Positions 2,613 to 58,751 of a DNA stretch of 64,000 nucleotides are shown piece after piece; the first letter of the stretch is position 1; every line of letters starts with the position of its first letter. Location of the stretch: NCBI GenBank assembly GCA_041665345.1, contig JBAYJA010000001.1:265206-329205 (forward strand). Direction: 5' to 3'. Made by a program: the position numbers and the translations under genes. The DNA comes from Patescibacteria group bacterium. Lineage in GTDB: Bacteria; Patescibacteriota; Patescibacteriia; PEXW01. The notes below the pieces were generated by a model, which did not search any database, was not told where the DNA came from, and saw only the letters and a list, made by a program, of their open reading frames with translations.

Positions 2613-2640
2613 TCAAAAAGCGTCCATGGACGCTTTTTGA
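2613..2640 (-). terminator. palindromic hairpin plus U-run immediately after the proposed tmRNA 3' end
   Basis: aaaaagcgtccatggacgcttttt is a perfect palindrome flanked by A/T runs. Confidence 0.5.
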
Positions 2641-3038
2641 GGTGGAGATGAGGGGTCTTGCACCCCTGTCTAGTTCACCGCTGTTCTACTGGTCGACAGG
2701 TTTGGGCCGTTCAAAGGTGGAGGCTGCAGCGCACGGAATGGCCAAGCTCGCTACAACCCGACCTTACGGAGTTCTCAGTTACCGCCAGTAAGGGTAACGG
2801 TAACCCAGCCTGGAGTATGGCACTCGCGATTCCCGCACCAGGCTGCGGGGCGAATGGGTTGTCGGTTTTTAGGCGACGACCGGAGCAAACTGAGGCGCGA
2901 ACGCGTTAGCGAACGCAACCTTCACTTTGCTGACAAAAGACGTGGCAGTTGTCAATTGTCCAACAGTTTTACGCCATGTTGAACGCGGGCGACCTGCACA
3001 GCAGAGGACGAGCAAACTATCAACTTCTGAACATCCCC
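2641..3038 (-). ncRNA. ssrA: tmRNA (ssrA), one-piece
   Basis: It lies immediately downstream of smpB on the same strand. The 5' GGGGAUG pairs with the 3' CAUCUCC-A-CC, giving a 7-bp acceptor stem with a G3:U70 wobble (alanine identity). The T-arm is AGGGG-UGCAAGA-CCCCU. An internal frame ends GCU AAC GCG UUC GCG CCU CAG UUU GCU CCG GUC GUC GCC UAA, giving the tag ANAFAPQFAPVVA. A terminator follows. The region has no credible protein ORF. Confidence 0.55.
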
Positions 3039-4686: not shown

Positions 4687-6321
4687 ATGCACATCCGATT
4701 CGAACTCCAGAAAATGCTCCAAGAACTTGTTGGGGCTGATGCCTTGAAGGTTAAGGTGGAACGTCCAAGTTCCGCTGAACATGGTGATTACGCAACTAGC
4801 ATCGCTTTAGCGTTGGGCAAGCAGCAGGGGATTGCGCCGCAGCAGGCCGCCAGCCAGCTGGTGGAAAAACTCAAAGCTCAGGCGCACCCAGCCATTGGCG
4901 ATATTTCCATTGCTGGGCCCGGGTTTATGAACTTGCGCTTGTCTGATGCGTGGCTTACTGCACAAGGCGTGGCAGCGGCCAAGAGCGTTGCTGGTCTGGG
5001 CAAGAGCATGTTACACAAAGGTGAGCACGCGCATTTGGAATTTATTTCGGCCAACCCCACTGGTCCGTTGACATTGGCCAATGCGCGTGGTGGCTTTTTG
5101 GGTGATGTCTTGGGGAATGTTCTGCAGCGCACAGGCTATAAGGTCGTTCGGGAATTTTACGTGAATGACCGGGGCAACCAGGTGGGCGTTTTGGCAGAGT
5201 CGGTGCTGCGGCGCTACTGGCAGCAGCAGGGGATTACCATTGACTACCCCGAGACGTGCTACCAAGGCGCGTACGTGGACGAGTTGGCGCGGAAGCTGAA
5301 GCTGGCAAATTATAGAATGACGGACGTGGCCAAGATCCACGAGATTCGGGACAAGATTAAAGACAAAGTCGTGGCAACGATGCTGAAGGAGATTCAGCGC
5401 GTGGTCACCAAGACCATGGGCATTACCTTTGATAACTGGCTATCTGAAAAAGCACTGGTTGCCTCCGGCGTACTGGACAAGTTGCTGGCAAAACTCAAAG
5501 ACCAGGGCATGATCTACGAAAAAGAAGGCGCCACCTGGTTGGCGACCACCAAGTACGGAGATGATAAAGATCGAGTCTTGGTGAAAGCGGATGGGGAAAT
5601 GGCGTACTTCTTACCGGACATTGCCAACCACTGGCTGAAGTTCACCAAGCATAAGGCAAATGTGGCCATCAACATCCTGGGTGCGGATCACCATGGGTAC
5701 GTGGCTCGCATGCGCGCCGCAATGCAGGGCTTGGGTTTTGACAATGCCGCGCATCAGTTTCACCCCATCATCATCCAATTCGTTCGCCTGCTGCAGGATG
5801 GCAAAGAAGTGAAGATGTCTAAGCGCCGGGGGACATACGTGGAAGCGGAAGAAGTGGTGGAAGAAGTTGGTTTGGACGCGGCGCGCTTCTTCTTCCTGAT
5901 GTACGACCCCAACACGCACCTGGATTTCAACCTGGACGCGGCCAAAGCGCAGAATGAGAAGAACCCGGTGTACTACGTGCAGTACGCGCATGCTCGTATG
6001 TGCAGCATCATCGCCAAGACCAAGGGTCTGCCCGTGGCAAAAACCCCGGTGGGGGTATTGCCAGCGTCAGCGCGCCGGCTTATACTCGAACTCCTCCGCT
6101 GGCCTGAGGTGCTGGAAGACGTGAGCCGCGATTACGGCGTGCAGCGCATTCCGCAGTACGCCCTGGATCTGGCGCGGACCTTCCACGATTTCTACACGAA
6201 TGTCCGGGTGATTGATAACGAACACGTCCAGAGCTTGCCGTTCACGCTGGTTCGCGGTACAAAGAATGTACTGGCAGATGTTCTGGACACGCTTGGCATC
6301 ACCGCGCCAGCGCACATGTAG
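4687..6321 (+). CDS. argS: arginyl-tRNA synthetase
   Basis: The class I block ISANPTGPLTLANARGG is present, and VQYAHAR plus the DALR anticodon-binding region are at the C-terminus. Confidence 0.9.
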   Translation: MHIRFELQKMLQELVGADALKVKVERPSSAEHGDYATSIALALGKQQGIAPQQAASQLVEKLKAQAHPAIGDISIAGPGFMNLRLSDAWLTAQGVAAAKSVAGLGKSMLHKGEHAHLEFISANPTGPLTLANARGGFLGDVLGNVLQRTGYKVVREFYVNDRGNQVGVLAESVLRRYWQQQGITIDYPETCYQGAYVDELARKLKLANYRMTDVAKIHEIRDKIKDKVVATMLKEIQRVVTKTMGITFDNWLSEKALVASGVLDKLLAKLKDQGMIYEKEGATWLATTKYGDDKDRVLVKADGEMAYFLPDIANHWLKFTKHKANVAINILGADHHGYVARMRAAMQGLGFDNAAHQFHPIIIQFVRLLQDGKEVKMSKRRGTYVEAEEVVEEVGLDAARFFFLMYDPNTHLDFNLDAAKAQNEKNPVYYVQYAHARMCSIIAKTKGLPVAKTPVGVLPASARRLILELLRWPEVLEDVSRDYGVQRIPQYALDLARTFHDFYTNVRVIDNEHVQSLPFTLVRGTKNVLADVLDTLGITAPAHM

Positions 6322-7593: not shown

Positions 7594-7663
7594 GGTGACG
7601 AAGGAGATTGCAGACAGTCCTTTGTGCAGAGCAAGATTCTTCGAAGACTCAGAATGACAGAGG
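7594..7663. repeat. 5'-truncated copy of the REP-like palindromic repeat family
   Basis: gacgaaggagattgc...gcaagattcttcgaagactcagaatgacagagg matches the inner and right arms of the copies at 36569, 48047 and 54505. Confidence 0.5.
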
Positions 7664-7732
7664 CTTGTACAGTCAGTGCCTCCCCCTTAGAAGCAGCTTC
7701 TCTAAGCTGCGGTGGATTGAAGATTAAAGTGA

Positions 7733-7797
7733 GGGTAGCCCGGGTCCCTTGACCCGGGCGTTTTCCATTAGGCAAGGTCAAGGGACCTCGCCTACCC
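7733..7797. repeat. compound-hairpin repeat (outer GGGTAG/CTACCC stem around two GTCCCTTGAC-type hairpins)
   Basis: gggtagcccgggtcccttgacccggg...aggtcaagggacct..cctaccc. The same element occurs at 51588..51652, with its modules reordered and in inverted orientation. Confidence 0.55.
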
Positions 7798-24741: not shown

Positions 24742-24836
24742 CGGGAATTAGTTCAGTCGGTAGAACGCTCTTTGCTCGCATCGATTGAGAGCTTTACGAG
24801 CACGGAGAGGTCACAGGTTCAAGTCCTGTATTCCCG
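24742..24836 (+). tRNA. tRNA-like element (type II-like, 95 nt) with an expanded anticodon-loop region. It may be a pseudo-tRNA or a tRNA with a short insertion.
   Basis: Acceptor CGGGAAT/ATTCCCG, D-arm GTTC-AGTCGGTA-GAAC and T-arm ACAGG-TTCAAGT-CCTGT are all canonical. The anticodon stem GCTCT/AGAGC encloses a 14-nt loop and the variable region is about 21 nt. No clean 7-nt anticodon loop is found. Confidence 0.4.
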
Positions 24837-24845
24837 AAAAAAATT

Positions 24846-24974: not shown

Positions 24975-25001
24975 AGCGCTTCATCACGAGGCGCTTTTTT
25001 C
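24975..25001 (+). terminator. intrinsic terminator after the tRNA-like pair
   Basis: agcgcttcatcacgaggcgct followed by tttttt. Confidence 0.6.
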
Positions 25002-36512: not shown

Positions 36513-36568
36513 AGGGGGGGGGCTGCGCCGTAAAGCTATAAAGCCATAGGGCTGTAGAGGTCTTTTTC

Positions 36569-36656
36569 TTGTCATCCTGAGTCATACGAAGGATCTTGCT
36601 CTTTGCTTGGAACCACCACTAAGATCCTTCGTCGCAGAATTCTCAGAATGACAGAG
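36569..36656. repeat. REP-like long palindromic repeat (full copy)
   Basis: gtcatcctgagtcatacgaaggatc ... gatccttcgtcgcagaattctcagaatgac. The arms are complementary. Confidence 0.6.
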
Positions 36657-48046: not shown

Positions 48047-48130
48047 TGTCATCCTGAGGAGTCTACGACGAAGGATCTCCAGATAATGTACAAACTTCGG
48101 AGATTCTTCGTCAGACTCAGAATGACAAAG
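48047..48130. repeat. REP-like long palindromic repeat (full copy)
   Basis: tgtcatcctgaggagtctacgacgaaggatctcc ... ggagattcttcgtcagactcagaatgaca. Confidence 0.6.
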
Positions 48131-49061: not shown

Positions 49062-49089
49062 TTGACATTTTGGGTTTAGTTCGTACAAT
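49062..49089 (+). promoter_or_regulatory. sigma70-like promoter upstream of the ATP synthase operon
   Basis: TTGACA, a 16-nt spacer, then TACAAT, about 70 nt before the atpI-like start. Confidence 0.4.
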
Positions 49090-49421: not shown

Positions 49422-50168
49422 ATGGCCGCAGAAGTATCACTAGCCGCAGAAACCGTGTTCCACCTTGGGCCCCTACCCGTGAGCAACAGTTTGCTGACGA
49501 CCTGGGTGGTTGTCGCCCTGGTGATCATTGGCGCCTTGCTGCTTCGCCGCAAAGTGAAAACCATACCTCATGGTTTGCAAAATTTGGTGGAAGCCATGTT
49601 TGATGGAGCGTTGGGGATTATGGACTCAGTAACGCAGGATCGAAAGCAGTCGGAGAAGTTCTTCCCGTTTGTCTTCACGCTTTTCCTGTTCATTCTCATT
49701 GGCAACTGGTTGGGGCTCATGCCCGGGGTGGGTACTATTGGCTTTAACGAAATCCACGACGGCCACGAGCTCTTCGTGCCGCTCTTCCGTGGGCCAGCTG
49801 CGGACCTGAACTTCACCTTGGCACTTGCGCTCATTTCCGTGGTTGCCACGCAGGTCATTGCCGTGTTCACTATTGGGTTCATGAAGCACCTGAAGAAGTA
49901 CGTGAACTTCAAAGACCCCATCATGGGTTTCGTGGGTGCGTTGGAAGGTATGTCCGAGTTCGCGAAGATTCTCTCCTTCAGCTTCCGGTTGTTCGGCAAC
50001 GTTTTTGCCGGAGAAGTGTTACTCATTGTCATTGGGCTCATCATCCCATTCCTGGTGCCCGTGCCTTTCCTCTTCCTGGAAATTTTTGTTGGGTTTATTC
50101 AGGCATTCATTTTTGCAATGTTGACCCTGGTGTTCTTGAAAGTTGCAACTGCTGTCCATGAACACTAA
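49422..50168 (+). CDS. atpB: F0F1 ATP synthase subunit a
   Basis: The conserved ...SFSFRLFGNVFAGEVLL... arginine-containing helix is present. Confidence 0.9.
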   Translation: MAAEVSLAAETVFHLGPLPVSNSLLTTWVVVALVIIGALLLRRKVKTIPHGLQNLVEAMFDGALGIMDSVTQDRKQSEKFFPFVFTLFLFILIGNWLGLMPGVGTIGFNEIHDGHELFVPLFRGPAADLNFTLALALISVVATQVIAVFTIGFMKHLKKYVNFKDPIMGFVGALEGMSEFAKILSFSFRLFGNVFAGEVLLIVIGLIIPFLVPVPFLFLEIFVGFIQAFIFAMLTLVFLKVATAVHEH

Positions 50169-50282: not shown

Positions 50283-50522
<240 letters not shown>

Positions 50523-50588: not shown

Positions 50589-51092
50589 ATGGAAGAACTC
50601 GTCAAAAAATTCGGCATCGAACCCACACTCCTCTTAGCGCAGGTCATCAACTTTGGCCTGGTGCTATTCGTGCTGTGGAAATTTGCCTACAAGCCCGTGC
50701 TGAAAATTATGCGCGAGCGTCGGGAGAAAATTGCCAAGAGCTTGGATGATGCCAAAGCCGTGGAGCAGAAGTTAGCTGAAGCTGAGGAGCTGAAGAAAGT
50801 GAAGCTGAAGGAAGCCCGAACTGAGGCGCAGGCGTTAATGGAAGCCACGTCTGTTGAAAGCGAGCGCTACCGCCAGGAACGGTTGAAGGAAATTGAAGCA
50901 GAGATGCAGCAGCATCGCGTGCAGGCTCAGGCGCAAATGCAGGCGGAGAAAGCGCAGGCCATGCAAGAAGCAAAAGCAGAATTGGTGAACCTGGTGATGA
51001 GCGCTACGCAGAAGGTGGTTCCCAGCGGGGTGGCCAAGGACTTGGATAAGAAACTCGTTGCTGAGGCAGTAGAGGAAAGTCAGAAATCTTAA
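50589..51092 (+). CDS. atpF: F0F1 ATP synthase subunit b
   Basis: An N-terminal TM helix followed by a long charged coiled coil. Confidence 0.8.
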   Translation: MEELVKKFGIEPTLLLAQVINFGLVLFVLWKFAYKPVLKIMRERREKIAKSLDDAKAVEQKLAEAEELKKVKLKEARTEAQALMEATSVESERYRQERLKEIEAEMQQHRVQAQAQMQAEKAQAMQEAKAELVNLVMSATQKVVPSGVAKDLDKKLVAEAVEESQKS

Positions 51093-51094
51093 GT

Positions 51095-51496
51095 ATGCGC
51101 AAAGCCTCCATTCGCCAGTACGCCGAAGCCTACCTGGGTGCTGCCAAAGCTGCCCCAGCGGCTGAGCGTGAGGAGATTGCAGGTCGCCTGATTCACGTCC
51201 TTGCCCGGCAGCGGCAGCTACGCTTGGTACCCAGGATTGCCGCGGAACTGGAACGGCTAATTGCCGAGCAGGGCGGGCCAGTAGTGGTGAAGGTTCGCAG
51301 CGCCAAAGCGTTAACCGCAACCGAAGATGCAGCCTTGGCAAAAAATCTGGAAACCAGCTTGAAGCGAAAAGTAAAACTCCGCCATATACATGAACCGAAG
51401 CTCATCGCTGGAGTGAAAATCCAAGTGGGGGATCAGTTGATTGATAGCTCTGTTTCCAGCCGGTTCGCCAGCCTCAAAGCGCACCTTTTACAATAA
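51095..51496 (+). CDS. atpH: F0F1 ATP synthase subunit delta (short form)
   Basis: Identified by position between atpF and atpA and by its OSCP-like C-terminus. It is only 133 aa. Confidence 0.65.
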   Translation: MRKASIRQYAEAYLGAAKAAPAAEREEIAGRLIHVLARQRQLRLVPRIAAELERLIAEQGGPVVVKVRSAKALTATEDAALAKNLETSLKRKVKLRHIHEPKLIAGVKIQVGDQLIDSSVSSRFASLKAHLLQ

Positions 51497-51587
51497 TTTC
51501 TCAGCCACTTCAGTGGCGTTGCAAATTAACAAGCAACCCGACTAAAGTCGGTGAGAAGAATGGAGTAGAGACTTTAGTCTCTTGGGT

Positions 51588-51652
51588 GGGTAGGCGAGGT
51601 CCCTTGACCTCGCCTCGCGGAGGACGCCCGGGTCAAGGGACCCGGGCTACCC
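51588..51652. repeat. compound-hairpin repeat (inverted copy of 7733..7797) inside a larger 51539..51692 palindromic structure
   Basis: gggtaggcgaggtcccttgacctcgcc...cccgggtcaagggacccgggctaccc. It is enclosed by the pairing arms ggagtagag/ctctactcc and gtgggtag/ctacccac. Confidence 0.55.
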
Positions 51653-51685
51653 ACTAGAGTGTAAGAGGCTAAAGCCTCTACTCCG

Positions 51686-51725
51686 AGAGAAAAAACAAAA
51701 AGCGCCTTGATACAATCGCAGCGCA
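51686..51725. repeat. conserved left block of the intra-atp cassette (copy A), likely the terminator of the antisense small ORF
   Basis: gagagaaaaaacaaaaagcgccttgatacaatcgcagcgca is 38/40 identical to 54590..54629. Confidence 0.6.
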
Positions 51726-51744
51726 TTAGAAAGAGAATGGTATT

Positions 51745-51924
51745 TTAAGATTCCTGAAGAGGTCGCCTAAAGAGAACCCGTTTTACACAATTCTGTGTTT
51801 CCCAGGCGGCAAACGCTTCCCACCCCTCCTTGCCAAGTACGTTCATATTCATTTCCAGTTTTTGTCCTTCTAATAATGGTTCTCTGTCGACAAAGACCTT
51901 ATACTCCCATTTCTTTGTAGGCAT
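51745..51924 (-). CDS. small antisense ORF (59 aa), DUF4177-like, with its own promoter
   Basis: MPTKKWEYKVFVDREPLLEGQKLEMNMNVLGKEGWEAFAAWE... The RBS is gaggga. On the minus strand TTGACA-17nt-TAAAGT lies at 51990..51962. Confidence 0.45.
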   Translation of the reverse strand: MPTKKWEYKVFVDREPLLEGQKLEMNMNVLGKEGWEAFAAWETQNCVKRVLFRRPLQES

Positions 51925-51994
51925 TTTTCCCTCATTTGTTAAAGATTCGGTTTAAGCATTCACTTTATTCTGCTGTTATCATACTGTCAACCCC

Positions 51995-52028
51995 CTGAAG
52001 CGAACCGCTAGGCGCGAAAAACCCTTTC
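51995..52028. repeat. conserved right block of the intra-atp cassette (copy A)
   Basis: ctgaagcgaaccgctaggcgcgaaaaaccctttcgcccctgacccatctcttca is about 95% identical to 54881..54934 and contains the hairpin GGCGCGAAA/TTTCGCCCC. Confidence 0.6.
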
Positions 52029-52108
52029 GCCCCTGACCCATCTCTTCATCAATAAATTTATTACAATTCGCGCAGGCAGAGACACCTGCGCTCGGACAAT
52101 GAAAATAT

Positions 52109-53596
52109 ATGCCGCATACAATCGTCGACGTTCTCAAAACCCAGCTCCAGTCCTACACCGCTAAAGCCACCACGGCCACGGTTGGCCACGTCATTGACGT
52201 AGGCGACGGCATTGCCCGAGTAGAAGGCCTGAGCAATGTGCAGTCCAGTGAAAAAGTCACCTTTGCGTCTGGCGCAACCGGCGTGGCATTGAACTTGGAA
52301 GAGGATACCGTGGGTGTGATGATTCTCAATGGCGCCACGCTTGTTTCCGAAGGTGAAGAAGTCCGGGGCACGGGGCAGGTCATGTCCGTCCCAGTAGGTG
52401 ATGCTTTGGTTGGCCGGGTGGTGAATCCCTTGGGTGATCCGATTGACGGCAAAGGCGCGATCAAGGGTGCAGAGCTGTACCCCGTGGAGCGCGTGGCACC
52501 TGGCGTCATTACGCGTGAAGGCGTGAAGCAGCCCCTGCAAACTGGCATCAAAGCCATTGACGCACTCATCCCCATTGGCCGTGGGCAGCGTGAGCTCATC
52601 ATTGGTGACCGGCAGACCGGCAAAACCGCCATTGCCATTGATACGATCATCAACCAGAAGGGGACAGGCGTCACCTGCATCTACGTGGCCATTGGGCAAA
52701 AAGCCTCCAAGATCGCGCGCATTGTGGCGGAATTGGAAAAGCACGGTGCCATGGCGCACACAATCATCGTCCTGGCCAGCGCGTCAGACCCCGCTGCCCT
52801 CTCTTTCCTTTCACCATACGCCGGCTGCGCCATGGGTGAGTACTTCATGGCCAAAGGCAAAGATGCATTGGTCATTTACGACGACCTGTCCAAGCACGCA
52901 TGGGCGTACCGCCAAATTTCTCTGCTCCTCCGCCGACCCCCAGGCCGCGAAGCCTACCCTGGAGATATTTTTTACCTGCACTCTCGCTTGCTGGAGCGCG
53001 CGGCAAAAATGAGCAAAGAGAACGGTGGTGGCTCACTCACAGCCTTGCCGATTATTGAAACGCAGGCCGGGGACATGAGCGCCTACATTCCCACCAACGT
53101 CATTTCCATTACCGACGGACAGATCATTCTGGAATCCGATTTGTTCTACCAAGGCCAACGTCCAGCCTTAAACGTTGGATTGTCTGTCTCCCGCGTGGGT
53201 TCCAGTGCTCAGGTGAAAGCCATGAAGAAGGTGGCCGGGAAGCTCCGTTTGGACATGGCGCAGTACCGCGAACTCGCAGCCTTTGCCCAGTTCGGTTCGG
53301 ATTTGGATGATGCCACCAAGCAGCAGTTGGAGCGCGGCAAGCGCACGGCTGAATTGCTAAAGCAGGGGATTGGCCAGCCCATGCCCGTGTCGGAGCAAGT
53401 AGCCGTGCTCTACGCCGTTACCCAAGGGCACGTGGACAAAGTTGAAGTGGAAAACGTCCAAGCCTGGGAAAAAGCTTTTGTGAAAATGCTCCGCAGCACA
53501 GGCAGCAAATGGCTGAAAGAGATTGAGACCAAAGGTGAATTGACCCCAGCACTTGAAGCACAGTTGAAAACCCTTCTGCAGAACTTTTCAATGTAA
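52109..53596 (+). CDS. atpA: F0F1 ATP synthase subunit alpha
   Basis: [15 protein letters not shown] is the P-loop. The alignment is full length. Confidence 0.95.
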
Positions 53597-53598
53597 AC

Positions 53599-54495
53599 AT
53601 GGCCAGTACCCGCGACATTCGGCGGCGGATCAAGTCCGTCGGCAATACCAAGAAGATCACCAAAGCCATGGAACTGGTGGCGGCGTCCAAGATGCGTCGC
53701 GCCGTGCAGCAGGCGTTGATGACCCGCGCCTACGCCAAGGCCGCCTGGGACGTCCTCACGAATGTCAGCGCCGTGACCAATCGTGACCTGCACCCGCTGC
53801 TGGTGGAACGCCCCGTCCAAAAAGCCGCGGTGATTGTCATAAGCTCAGACCGGGGTTTGGCGGGTGGTTTGAACGCAAACATTGTGCGGCAGACCATGGA
53901 GGTTGTGCAGAAGCAAGCGGTGCAGGTGGATTTGATTACCGTTGGGACTAAAGCCGCGGACGCTCTGCGTCGGTTGAATGCGAACATCGTTGCCGCCTTT
54001 CCCAACGCGCACGCCCACCCAACCGTGGCCGACCTACAACCAATTGTAAAAATTGCCATTGATGATTACGTCGCCGGCGTGTACGACAAGATTTTCGTGG
54101 TGTACACAGACTTCATTTCCACCCTCAACCAGAAAGCGCGGGCACGGCAAATACTTCCCATCCGGAAGCAGGATTTGAAAGAAGTCTTGGACGATACGCA
54201 GCACGTGGTATTGGATAAAGAGCTGGAAGGTTTTCAAAACCCTTACCTGTTTGAACCCAACGCGGATGCCGTACTGGAGAAAATGCTGCGGAACTTGGTG
54301 ACCAGCCAGCTGTACCAAGTGGTGCTGGAATCGTTAGCCTCAGAACATGCGGCGCGGATGGTCGCCATGCGTAACGCCACGGACGCAGCTGAAGAGCTTA
54401 TCGACGATCTCAACCTTACCTACAACCAAGCTCGCCAAGCCGGAATCACCCGCGAAATCGCGGAAATCTCTGCGGGCAGAGCAGCGTTGGAGTAA
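53599..54495 (+). CDS. atpG: F0F1 ATP synthase subunit gamma
   Basis: The N-terminus IRRRIKSVGNTKKITKAMELVAASKMRRA is a hallmark of gamma. Confidence 0.9.
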   Translation: MASTRDIRRRIKSVGNTKKITKAMELVAASKMRRAVQQALMTRAYAKAAWDVLTNVSAVTNRDLHPLLVERPVQKAAVIVISSDRGLAGGLNANIVRQTMEVVQKQAVQVDLITVGTKAADALRRLNANIVAAFPNAHAHPTVADLQPIVKIAIDDYVAGVYDKIFVVYTDFISTLNQKARARQILPIRKQDLKEVLDDTQHVVLDKELEGFQNPYLFEPNADAVLEKMLRNLVTSQLYQVVLESLASEHAARMVAMRNATDAAEELIDDLNLTYNQARQAGITREIAEISAGRAALE

Positions 54496-54504
54496 CCCCT
54501 CTTT

Positions 54505-54592
54505 TGTCATCCTGAGTCTTCGAAGGATCCTTCTGGAAGCACGTACTTGAGTAGCAAGATCCTTCGTCGAAGACTCCTCAGGATGACAAGAG
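54505..54592. repeat. REP-like long palindromic repeat (full, near-perfect copy)
   Basis: tgtcatcctgagtcttcgaaggatcc...gatccttcgtcgaagactcctcaggatgaca. Confidence 0.65.
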
Positions 54593-54629
54593 AGAAAAAT
54601 AAAAAGCGCCTTGATACAATCGCAGCGCA
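54590..54629. repeat. conserved left block of the intra-atp cassette (copy B)
   Basis: gagagaaaaataaaaagcgccttgatacaatcgcagcgca. Confidence 0.6.
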
Positions 54630-54635
54630 ACGGAA

Positions 54636-54806
54636 TTACACACTGTATTTTTCTAGGGATTTAGCTGCAAATTTAGTGATGATGCTACCTATTATCATCA
54701 TGAGCATCATTTTCCCTAGAGTAAGATCGCTGTTCCCGAAGATGTAGACAAATGGGGGAACAATGAGTAACCCCAACCCTGTTAAAAGCAAGTACATTCT
54801 AAACAT
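54636..54806 (-). CDS. small antisense ORF (56 aa), a two-TM membrane protein with its own promoter
   Basis: MFRMYLLLTGLGLLIVPPFVYIFGNSDLTLGKMMLMMIIGSIITKFAAKSLEKYSV. gagg lies before the ATG. On the minus strand TTGACA-17nt-TAGGTA lies at 54869..54841. Confidence 0.4.
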   Translation of the reverse strand: MFRMYLLLTGLGLLIVPPFVYIFGNSDLTLGKMMLMMIIGSIITKFAAKSLEKYSV

Positions 54807-54880
54807 TTTCAACCTCGATTTTTCTTTGTCTGGTAGTATATACCTAGCATTGAAAGTCCACCATGTCAACTAATATATCT

Positions 54881-54934
54881 CTGAAGCGAACCGCTAGGTG
54901 CGAAAGACCCTTTCGCCCCTGACCCATCTCTTCA
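54881..54934. repeat. conserved right block of the intra-atp cassette (copy B)
   Basis: ctgaagcgaaccgctaggtgcgaaagaccctttcgcccctgacccatctcttca. Confidence 0.6.
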
Positions 54935-54938
54935 CTAA

Positions 54939-56359
<1,421 letters not shown>

Positions 56360-56360
<1 letters not shown>

Positions 56361-56779
56361 TGACCAACCTTCACCTCACCATTACCACCCCAGAACGCAT
56401 TGTCCTCGAAACCGAGGTCAGCAGCGTGAACGTGCCAACTGTGGAAGGGGAGATTGGCGTGCTGGCCAACCACATTCCCTTGGTGTCCATTCTGGCTCCA
56501 GGCGAGCTGCATGCCATTGCTGCTGACGGTATGGAGCAGGTGATGGCCGTGTCTGGTGGTTTTGTGGAAGTGCGGGATAATAAGGTGGTTATCTTGGCAG
56601 ACACTGCGGAAAAAGCTGAGGAGATTGATGAAGCACGAGCCGAAGCCGGTCGCGAAAAAGCACGCCAACTGATGCAAGAACGTGCAACCGATGACGTGGG
56701 CTTTGCTGACGCGCAAGCCGCGCTGGCCAAAGAACTGGCGCGGTTGAAGGTGGTGCGGAAACGGCGGAAGCAGGTGTAG
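56360..56779 (+). CDS. atpC: F0F1 ATP synthase subunit epsilon
   Basis: The N-terminal beta-sandwich (ITTPERIVLETEVSSVNVP) and C-terminal helices are present. Its start overlaps the atpD stop. Confidence 0.85.
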
Positions 56780-56810
56780 AAATTTTGCATTATTGAGACA
56801 AGGATAAACC

Positions 56811-56839
56811 TTGACTTTTTTGTCATTTCCTGTATACTA
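56811..56839 (+). promoter_or_regulatory. sigma70-like promoter
   Basis: TTGACT, a 17-nt spacer, then TATACT. It lies downstream of atpC and about 110 nt before the next ORF. Confidence 0.4.
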
Positions 56840-58123: not shown

Positions 58124-58342
58124 GTGGAAAAAGCACAAGACTTTTGTCGGTGCAAGCGCGCGTTGACATCATTTGGTTTCTGCATGGGGTGCGGGAAGAA
58201 AGAGCCGCTCTGCTCTTGCGAGATTCTTTCCGATGCAGATCAGCAGATGCGTGCGCAGTGTGAAGCTTTGTTCGCTTCAGAGCATGTACGCGTCCGTGAT
58301 CAGAAGGGATATTTTGGTGATCGGCGCGTCCGCGCATCATGA
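58124..58342 (+). CDS. small Cys-rich protein
   Basis: CRCKRAL...FCMGCGKKEPLCSCE...QCEALF gives eight Cys in zinc-ribbon spacing. Confidence 0.35.
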   Translation: MEKAQDFCRCKRALTSFGFCMGCGKKEPLCSCEILSDADQQMRAQCEALFASEHVRVRDQKGYFGDRRVRAS

Positions 58343-58751
58343 AGTCATTTGCACTTTCAAGCCCGTTGGGATTCCAGTGGGCTTTTTGTTGCTTTGTCTG
58401 TCCATTTTGCTATACTTTTTTTGAAAATAGAGCATCCCTACTTTTTGGTAAAGGAGAGAGATTGTGGAAAAGAGAAAAATGTTCTTAGTCATTGCCTGCT
58501 TGTTCATTGCAGCTGGAACCGCGGGTAAGGCGCTTACCGATAACTCCATCTATATGGTTGGAGTCGGAATCGGTATGGCCATCCTTATTGGCTATTTCAG
58601 ACCAAGATCCATTTGAGGGTAACGACTGCAGCCCTCTGCAAACAGCATGCGCTCTGCTCAACAGGGCGCTTTTTTATACATTCACACCCCCTTCACCACA
58701 TTTTGGTAGAGTCAGGAAGTCGCGACATTCGTTCTTAACCATACACAATCT

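Follow-up and report, generated by a model that had tools for sequence, protein, structure and literature searches.

What lies between atpH and atpA in this genome of an uncultivated Patescibacteria group bacterium, and why does part of the same sequence recur between atpG and atpD? The window, that is, the whole 64 kb stretch of DNA analyzed here, contains a complete F-type ATP synthase operon, with all genes on the + strand, in which two junctions are long, atpH-atpA (hereafter HA; 612 nt) and atpG-atpD (hereafter GD; 494 nt). The original prediction described the HA spacer as an antisense cassette with conserved ends around a variable small open reading frame (ORF), mobile or recombining, and comparable to integron cassettes or miniature inverted-repeat transposable elements (MITEs). 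Comparison of the two spacers with the same junctions in related bacteria leads us to favor, with a probability of about 60%, a moron-like autonomous small-gene unit that lies antisense in the atp operon, was added between normally contiguous genes, and has its passenger exchanged by recombination. The spacer structure is not an assembly artefact because the identical sequence was assembled independently in four samples (ENA, JGI and two Logan runs), one of the assemblies being a contig of 1.07 Mb.

In both spacers, the minus strand carries the same parts in the same order: a hairpin (block R), a -35 box, a -10 box, a Shine-Dalgarno site, a small ORF, and a second block (L). The two copies of L (51691-51725 and 54595-54629; 35 nt) are 97% identical to each other, and the two copies of R (51995-52048 and 54881-54934; 54 nt) match at 52 of 54 positions (96%). 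Each block has exactly two matches in the window with up to three mismatches permitted, and none in 100 shuffles, which bears out the claim of two near-identical blocks in the HA and GD spacers. The right block had been taken to end at 52028; its true end is at 52048, and the sequence quoted for it is itself 54 nt long. The HA spacer contains the following features:

51538..51551, minus strand: small terminator-like hairpin CCGACTTTAGTCGG with a T-rich tail, adjoining atpH (motif scan); a possible second stop for antisense transcripts

51562..51684, no strand assigned: composite palindrome resembling repetitive extragenic palindromic (REP) and REPIN elements, made of inverted repeats, with outer arms of the GGAGTAGAG... 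type at 51562-51583 and 51663-51684 and an inner hairpin at 51586-51654; further copy at 7733-7797

51686..51725, minus strand: block L copy 1, predicted intrinsic terminator of ORF1, GCGCU..GAU...AUC..AGGCGC and then UUUUUGUUUUUU

51745..51924, minus strand: ORF1, passenger 1, 59 aa, soluble, DUF4177-like; called as a gene in four assemblies

51929..51933, minus strand: Shine-Dalgarno site GAGGG of ORF1 (sequence reading)

51962..51990, minus strand: sigma-70-type promoter of ORF1, TTGACA-17-TAAAGT, with 10 of 12 consensus positions; -10 box at 51967..51962

51995..52048, no strand assigned: block R copy 1, imperfect hairpin of 54 nt, separated by 4 nt from the minus-strand -35 box downstream of it

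52049..52108, + strand: tail A, AT-rich TTATTACAAT plus a GC hairpin at about 52070-52091, reaching the atpA start codon

The corresponding features of the GD spacer are:

54499..54594, no strand assigned: REP-like palindrome of the GTCATCCTGAG...CTCAGGATGAC family, with more copies at about 48047-48129 and at 36567-36653

54590..54629, minus strand: block L copy 2, predicted intrinsic terminator of ORF2 (repeat and folding)

54636..54806, minus strand: ORF2, passenger 2, a 56-aa orphan for which no homologue was found; hydrophobic, membrane-type peptide

54813..54816, minus strand: Shine-Dalgarno site GAGG of ORF2 (sequence reading)

54841..54869, minus strand: promoter of ORF2, TTGACA-17-TAGGTA, with a weaker -10 box at 54846..54841 (sequence reading)

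54881..54934, no strand assigned: block R copy 2, 11 nt from the -35 box

54935..54989, + strand: tail B, two tandem 14-nt units with GGCTTACAGC (54952-54979), reaching the atpD start codon

Thus, the 59-aa minus-strand ORF (51924..51745), its TTGACA-17-TAAAGT promoter and its GAGGG site are all present as previously proposed. Most likely, ORF2 starts with the ATG at 54806, which has the GAGG site upstream, rather than with the TTG at 54869, and the distance from the Shine-Dalgarno site to the ATG in the two window units is 4-6 nt. Among 35 long-ORF starts in the window, most genes, all atp genes included, have no recognizable Shine-Dalgarno site; small intergenic ORFs, every passenger included, are preceded by GAGG or GGAGG. 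On the + strand, a motif scan detected neither a hairpin followed by a U-run nor any other terminator-like site in either spacer, and no promoter between R and the start codons of atpA and atpD.

On the minus strand, block L consists of a GC-rich stem-loop directly followed by a U-run, UUUUU(N)UUUUU. In the window, the stem energy is -9 kcal/mol; the values for L117, L112, L108 and L104 (labels of this form denote related contigs) lie between -13 and -21 kcal/mol, and in L104 and L108, the stem comprises 13 bp (-18 to -21 kcal/mol) with a 5-nt loop and the U-run. In the + direction, an A-run precedes the hairpin, so that no termination is expected that way. Sequence and folding together indicate that L is best read as a Rho-independent (intrinsic) terminator of the small gene. 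We also considered L as a + strand promoter, given that the window copies contain TGATACAAT, an extended -10-like motif, and rejected this reading because the motif becomes ACGAGGTTAT in the second clade of relatives, with the hairpin and the minus-strand U-run kept. The proposal that the unit drives antisense transcription toward atpH and atpG is not upheld, given that the predicted terminator should probably stop most of the transcript first.

The junctions of related bacteria were examined in a graded series of AtpG homologues with their contigs, to which L098 was added from a metagenome pattern scan. We identified 11 units in the window and seven related contigs (8 Patescibacteria sequences in all), all 11 antisense to the atp genes and all 11 at the HA or the GD junction. 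The passengers of these units are:

Window, HA: 59 aa, DUF4177-like

Window, GD: 56 aa, membrane-type

L102, HA: 78 aa, two membrane segments

L117, HA: 77 aa, soluble

L098, GD: 71 aa, DUF4177-like

L104, GD: 36 aa, one membrane segment

L108, HA: about 89 aa, membrane-type

L108, GD: about 60 aa, membrane-type

L115, HA: partial, hydrophobic

L115, GD: about 75 aa, membrane-type

L112, GD: 49 aa, soluble

All 11 units share a TTGACA or TTGACT -35 box, a spacer of 17-18 nt, a -10 box, a GAGG or GGAGG site and a small ORF, and an L-type terminator was seen in 10 of them, the unit at the HA junction of L115 being cut by the contig end before L. The following junctions of relatives lack the insertion altogether:

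Empty at GD: L005

Empty at HA: L104 and L112

Empty at both junctions: L106, L109, L111, L113/L114 and L116

Empty junctions measure 3-21 nt, compared to 494-1064 nt for the filled ones, so the view that the insertions split a normally contiguous operon holds. The empty sites, for which a comparison with related genomes had been suggested, include those of L116, in which both junctions are empty even though atpA and atpG are 87% identical to those of the window at the nucleotide level and AtpG belongs to the same 90% cluster. The patchy distribution, together with the uniform short empty sites of the "TAA cc..cat ATG" type, argues for gain of the units by insertion rather than for many precise losses. 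No consistent target-site duplication or clean insertion boundary could be derived from the comparison of empty and filled sites. The feature is confined to one Patescibacteria clade.

Several observations on the junctions of relatives stand apart from this pattern. The GD spacer of L117 (3986-4049) consists of 64 CT-rich nucleotides without a cassette and could be either what remains after the loss of a unit or an expansion of unrelated origin. In L111, there is a 165-nt spacer (4836-5000) at a third junction, atpA-atpG, which contains the GGCTTACAGC motif of tail B and no small gene. The contigs of several relatives stop in or beside these spacers (L102 at 5898-5955, and the starts of L005 and L115), which suggests that the L and R repeats and the palindromes break short-read assemblies; because of these contig ends, the cassettes are probably under-represented in metagenome-assembled genomes.

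The sharpest evidence of exchange comes from comparing the HA spacer of L102 with the GD spacer of the window. From the stop codon through the palindrome and L, the two are 89% identical, and from R to the start codon, they are 84% identical; between L and R, 250-325 nt are unalignable, with a forced alignment yielding 40%. Between the window and L102, four-fold degenerate sites of atpA and atpG differ by 39% and these genes overall by 13%, and L plus R differ at 2 positions only (81 of 83 match), for which the probability is ~3e-13 at the neutral rate and 8.5e-4 at the overall coding rate. Even in L112, where the atp genes are only ~70% identical, L is still recognizable (24 of 29 positions). 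The ends thus appear to be either strongly constrained or recently exchanged, and in either case, the interior would have been replaced rather than have diverged. Furthermore, the palindrome that opens the HA spacer of L117 recurs at the start of the GD spacer of L102, and the tails 5' of the start codons fall into three types (A, B and C) shared across both junction positions: tail A of the window is homologous to the tail 5' of atpD in L104, and tail B to the tails 5' of atpA in L102, L115 and L117. Because palindromes, ends and tails are shared in differing combinations across junctions, the spacers read as mosaics of five modules, namely, palindrome(s), L, passenger, R and tail. In L098, the end of atpG is closest to L104 (87%) and the start of atpD to L113 and L005 (83%), a weak sign of recombination across the spacer. 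The composition of the passengers also deviates from that of the surroundings, with a G+C content of 31-46% in passenger regions vs 47-59% in the flanking genes, and a G+C content at third codon positions of 0.42-0.57 in passenger ORFs vs 0.57-0.70 in the atp genes.

The passenger ORFs span 36-89 aa, and in an all-against-all BLASTP comparison, they are mutually unrelated, the only exception being the pair of DUF4177-like proteins (42% identity over 36 aa, E 2e-7); accordingly, the two window ORFs are unrelated, as the original prediction stated. Seven of the 11 are hydrophobic, six by Kyte-Doolittle score and the partial peptide at the HA junction of L115 by reading, and those that were scored have one or two predicted membrane segments. 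The remaining four are soluble: the two DUF4177-like proteins and those of 77 and 49 aa. ORF1 itself scores 14.5 bits against DUF4177 (PF13783), under the Pfam gathering threshold of 25. An exhaustive HMMER search matched small proteins of 56-70 aa (P0126 and P0128-P0130). These proteins in turn reach 18-23 bits against DUF4177 and can be aligned with ORF1 from end to end, with WEY, GxxGWE and (K/R)RP conserved. Because the matched proteins score to DUF4177 and these motifs align, ORF1 is a probable divergent member of the DUF4177 family, in line with the earlier description of it as DUF4177-like. In a word-indexed search of 5.8 billion proteins, ORF1 and ORF2 matched only themselves. ORF2 and most of the other passengers are orphan hydrophobic peptides, and the case for their being genuine genes is that each comes with a consistent set of predicted promoter, ribosome-binding site and terminator. 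Elsewhere in the window, too, small genes are preceded by strong Shine-Dalgarno sites: an intergenic stretch at 58124-58675, without an L or R block, contains two of them, a Cys-rich 72-aa ORF (58124-58342) and a 50-aa membrane peptide (58464-58616) with a GCGC...GGCGCTTTTTT terminator 3' of it.

Block R, for which an RNA fold had been suggested as a check, forms an imperfect hairpin on both strands, with energies of -17 to -22 kcal/mol. Nine copies have the stems CTGAAG/CTTCA and GCGAAA/TTTCGC in common and differ in the loops, which in the second clade are of the GNRA type on the + strand in five of six copies (GCAA in three, GGAA and GTGA). Changes in the stems include one compensatory replacement of G-C by A-U and several transitions from mismatch to pair. 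As to whether R acts as a strand-specific RNA, the folding energies are alike on both strands and the covariation is too thin to discriminate. R, the adjoining CCCC and the TTGACA box form one conserved module, and R is located 55-200 nt upstream of the atpA or atpD start codon in every case. In L112, the position of R is occupied by an unrelated AT-rich 16-bp hairpin (z = -4.1). A hairpin just 5' of the promoter thus looks like part of the architecture, although a dispensable part. As a guess, R could be a structural insulator, or a protective or stabilizing 5' stem-loop for the downstream atp mRNA.

We searched for the blocks beyond the junctions described above. An R covariance model detected only atp-junction copies in 718 kb, which comprised the 64 kb window (~6% of the source genome) and 62 other loci that included atp operons of distant Patescibacteria. 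The exact patterns of L and R had no match in viral contigs, and blastn of both units against phage and plasmid records found nothing. A scan of JGI metagenomes for the R core returned 17 stretches, of which L098 was the only true relative; the other 16 were rejected as unrelated simple hairpins of the TAGGGGCGAAA...TTTCGCCCCTGA type. No Rfam family reached the gathering score in the spacers, where only chance-level matches were seen (E >= 1.6). Restriction of the blocks to the two atp positions is part of what the original prediction had foreseen for a local duplication of an internal atp promoter or untranslated region; a local duplication does not fit, however, since the same two junctions of relatives have other genes between the same ends or are empty. 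What stands of the mobile or recombining cassette, then, is the conserved ends, the unrelated passengers and the recombining nature of the unit, whereas the likeness to integron cassettes does not hold and that to MITEs is not supported, given that no R copy lies beyond the atp junctions in the 718 kb.

The palindromes that adjoin L are separate REP/REPIN elements of a REP-associated tyrosine transposase (RAYT) and lie outside the unit; other members of their repeat families are found elsewhere in the window. The dispersed long intergenic palindromes comprise at least two families, GTCATCCTGAG...CTCAGGATGAC and GTGGGTAGGCGAGG... (7639-7797, 36567-36653 and 48047-48129), and yield spurious ORFs with LRMT-like peptides. 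A RAYT gene is located in the GD spacer of L108 (5967-6473, + strand, as the atp genes; NF047646, 114.7 bits vs a cut-off of 80; Pfam Y1_Tnp), flanked by REP hairpins of the GGAGTAGAG type, the same as the outer arms of 51562-51684. No RAYT or Y1 gene was found in the 64 kb window. REP palindromes accumulate beside or within the cassettes, after CTCTTCAA in L104 and L108 and inside R in L117. In L104 (6300-6430), a palindrome of the GTCATCCTGAG type directly follows R with (A/T)CTCTTCAA on each side, which may be a target duplication or the preferred site of that repeat family; in the HA spacer of L108, the same type of repeat directly follows CTCTTCAAT.

The atp genes, all on the + strand, are arranged as follows:

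49422-50168, + strand: atpB (gene call)

50295-50522, + strand: atpE (gene call)

50589-51092, + strand: atpF (gene call)

51095-51496, + strand: atpH, delta subunit, the 5' neighbor of the HA spacer (Pfam OSCP, E 5.5e-24)

52109-53596, + strand: atpA, alpha subunit (gene call)

53599-54495, + strand: atpG, gamma subunit (gene call)

54990-56360, + strand: atpD, beta subunit (gene call)

56360-56779, + strand: atpC (gene call)

A motif scan identified a promoter of the consensus type, TTGACA-16-TACAAT, 5' of the operon (49062-49089), and a terminator-like site 3' of atpC (56799-56813). Under the reading that we favor, each long spacer would be an autonomous small-gene unit inserted between genes that are contiguous in close relatives. 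Transcription from the 49062-49089 promoter would continue into atpA and atpD and thereby oppose the small gene head-on, and L would stop the antisense transcript before it reaches atpH or atpG. An antisense unit would thus let atp transcription pass, with L shielding atpH and atpG from antisense read-through, and the antisense orientation would be the only one seen because a sense-oriented unit would put the L terminator inside the operon. The passengers would be replaced via recombination inside L and R or at their margins, a step suggested by the fact that L and R are far better conserved than synonymous atp sites while the interior differs in all cases, and whole spacers would spread among relatives via recombination in the flanking conserved atp genes.

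Several findings weigh against this reading. The same complete flank set is present at the HA junction of L102 and at the GD junction of the window, which are not homologous, and because recombination in the flanking genes cannot explain this, copying between junctions is needed as well; no recombination or transposition machinery was identified. Restriction of L and R to atp junctions is odd for a freely mobile unit, and no reservoir of passengers emerged from the viral contigs, phage records and plasmids, with a single true match in the JGI metagenomes. R is dispensable, being absent in L112 and split by a ~130-nt palindrome in L117, and the covariation in its hairpin is thin, with one compensatory pair among 7 sequences, which is not significant. 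ORF1 and ORF2 have no close homologues, and the promoters, terminators and read-through are predictions from the DNA sequence.

The presence of the complete flank set at two different junctions, along with the patchy distribution among close relatives, is compatible also with a transposable element mobilized in trans by a Y1 (HUH) transposase, in the manner of the IS200/IS605-derived palindrome-associated transposable elements (PATEs) or of REP/RAYT, with L and R as subterminal hairpins that the enzyme would recognize in single-stranded DNA and the small gene as cargo. The hairpins at both ends, the RAYT gene in the GD spacer of L108 and the REP palindromes that abut or interrupt the units in L104, L108 and L117 point the same way. 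Nevertheless, we consider this unlikely: the hairpins of L and R are unlike one another and unlike the GGAGTAGAG repeats on either side of the RAYT gene, the covariance search of 718 kb found R at atp junctions only, the window has no Y1 gene, neither a constant target sequence nor a clean boundary emerges from the empty and filled sites, and the ends coincide with a terminator and a promoter module, which already explains their conservation. A more speculative variant, to which we give slightly less credence still, takes L and R for the recombination sites of an undescribed hairpin-based exchange system, perhaps served by a Y1/HUH (RAYT) enzyme; the atp junctions would then be a platform that loads small genes, mostly membrane peptides, from a population-wide pool, with their expression tied to head-on atp transcription. 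Integron-type cassettes recombining at attC-like hairpins seem hardly conceivable: R has the length and the unpaired bases of an attC-like imperfect hairpin (54 nt) and lies beside variable small ORFs, but its arms, CTGAAG(C/G)GA and (T/C)C(T/C)CTTCA, are not RYYYAAC/GTTRRRY core sites, the units occur singly rather than in arrays, each with a promoter and a terminator of its own, and the called genes with Pfam hits within 5-6 kb of any locus include no integrase.

A different class of explanation treats the blocks as parts of the operon or the peptides as toxins. That L and R are + strand regulatory elements of the atp genes (an internal promoter, a processing site or a 5' stabilizer for atpA and atpD), duplicated locally, with the ORFs incidental, would account for their presence only upstream of these two genes, for the TGATACAAT motif in L, for the distance of R from the start codons and for the GNRA-type + strand loops. 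This appears rather improbable given that the spacers are absent altogether in close relatives, that the change from TGATACAAT to ACGAGGTTAT left the hairpin and the minus-strand U-run in place, and that a complete promoter, ribosome-binding site and ORF can be read on the minus strand of every unit, with L wherever the far end was sequenced; moreover, ORF1 aligns over its full length with DUF4177-like proteins, and R is equally stable on either strand with no + strand promoter between it and the start codons. Alternatively, in a type I toxin-antitoxin-like arrangement, the hydrophobic passengers would function as membrane toxins, with the atp mRNA from read-through, complementary to them over their full extent, serving as the antitoxin RNA, which would tie the toxin to atp transcription. 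The strong predicted promoters and ribosome-binding sites of the seven hydrophobic passengers, the complete overlap of the passengers with the predicted convergent operon transcript and the unit size of ~250-330 nt, typical of such loci, fit this idea. We nonetheless regard it as very unlikely because four passengers, ORF1 among them, are soluble, the peptides share no family, and there is no conserved dedicated antisense promoter, the sole candidate, TGATACAAT in L, not being kept in the second clade.

Other features of the window and of the related contigs were noted as well. The neighbors of the units, namely, atp genes, a Met-tRNA ligase-type gene, a methylase gene and similar genes, are not those of a phage or prophage genome. 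The window also encodes a tmRNA (2640-3038, minus strand; Rfam RF00023, 79.5 bits) and a tRNA-Ala(CGC) (24742-24837) which, at 96 nt with the anticodon at position 36, is unusually long and may contain an intron or insertion; a terminator of the GGCGCTTTTTT type lies 3' of it (24976-25000). Among the relatives, L104 has a heliorhodopsin gene (PF18761; 9967-10779) ~2 kb downstream of the atp operon, and in L112, a reverse-transcriptase gene (RVT_1; 1-718) is located directly 5' of the operon.

Patescibacteria (also known as the candidate phyla radiation, CPR) have tiny genomes that are thought to leave little room for accessory DNA. Here, a highly conserved operon of energy metabolism carries small genes that come and go in a presence/absence pattern, their content varying among relatives, so that an essential operon appears to serve as a slot for exchangeable mini-genes. 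If expressed, these units would represent a natural case of a strong convergent promoter inside an essential operon, insulated by a terminator, and a route for quick turnover of small proteins in episymbiotic bacteria. The sharp boundaries between ends and interior make the recombination mechanism testable with population metagenomes, and the L and R modules could act as markers for more such slots.

The literature search yielded nothing relevant on antisense small proteins in atp operons, on insertions in the atp operons of CPR bacteria or on RAYT in Patescibacteria, and as far as the searched literature shows, the antisense atp units are real and undescribed. They nevertheless resemble several known systems in part. 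As with REP/REPIN elements and their RAYT, the palindromes beside L are dispersed and intergenic, and one repeat type flanks the RAYT gene in L108, whereas neither the two blocks nor the small genes are copies of those repeats, and they were not found dispersed. With IS200/IS605 elements and PATEs, the units share hairpins at both ends, the lack of terminal inverted repeats and a small size, and IS200 has a terminator hairpin at one end; the atp units differ in having no internal Y1 gene, no derivable target sequence and no dispersed copies found in the loci searched, and their L hairpin (GCGCC...GCGC) and R hairpin (CTGAAG...GCGAAA...TTTCGC...CTTCA) have no common sequence. The type I toxin-antitoxin loci ldr/rdl (long direct repeats), ibs/sib and txpA/ratA are ~0.3-0.5 kb in size and encode tiny hydrophobic peptides, expressed from a strong promoter and overlapped by an antisense transcript. 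Those families conserve the peptide, whereas the atp units conserve the ends and not the peptide; moreover, the operon mRNA itself would take the part of the antisense RNA, and some cargos are soluble. Integron cassettes likewise have variable small ORFs beside a conserved imperfect hairpin, but the atp units lack attC core sites, an integrase and an array, and have a promoter and terminator each.

The closest parallel is the phage moron, which is recognized as extra DNA between genes that adjoin each other in related genomes, carries a promoter and a terminator of its own, and deviates from its neighbors in G+C content (PMC3594210). The atp units show all three of these features, the promoter and terminator as predicted from the sequence, and their cargo is small and functionally varied. 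Unlike phage morons, they reside in an essential cellular operon of a Patescibacteria chromosome and are always antisense. The unrelated cargos of the atp units have one terminator (L) and one promoter-proximal hairpin (R) in common, and such sharing of end modules is, to our knowledge, not a described property of morons.

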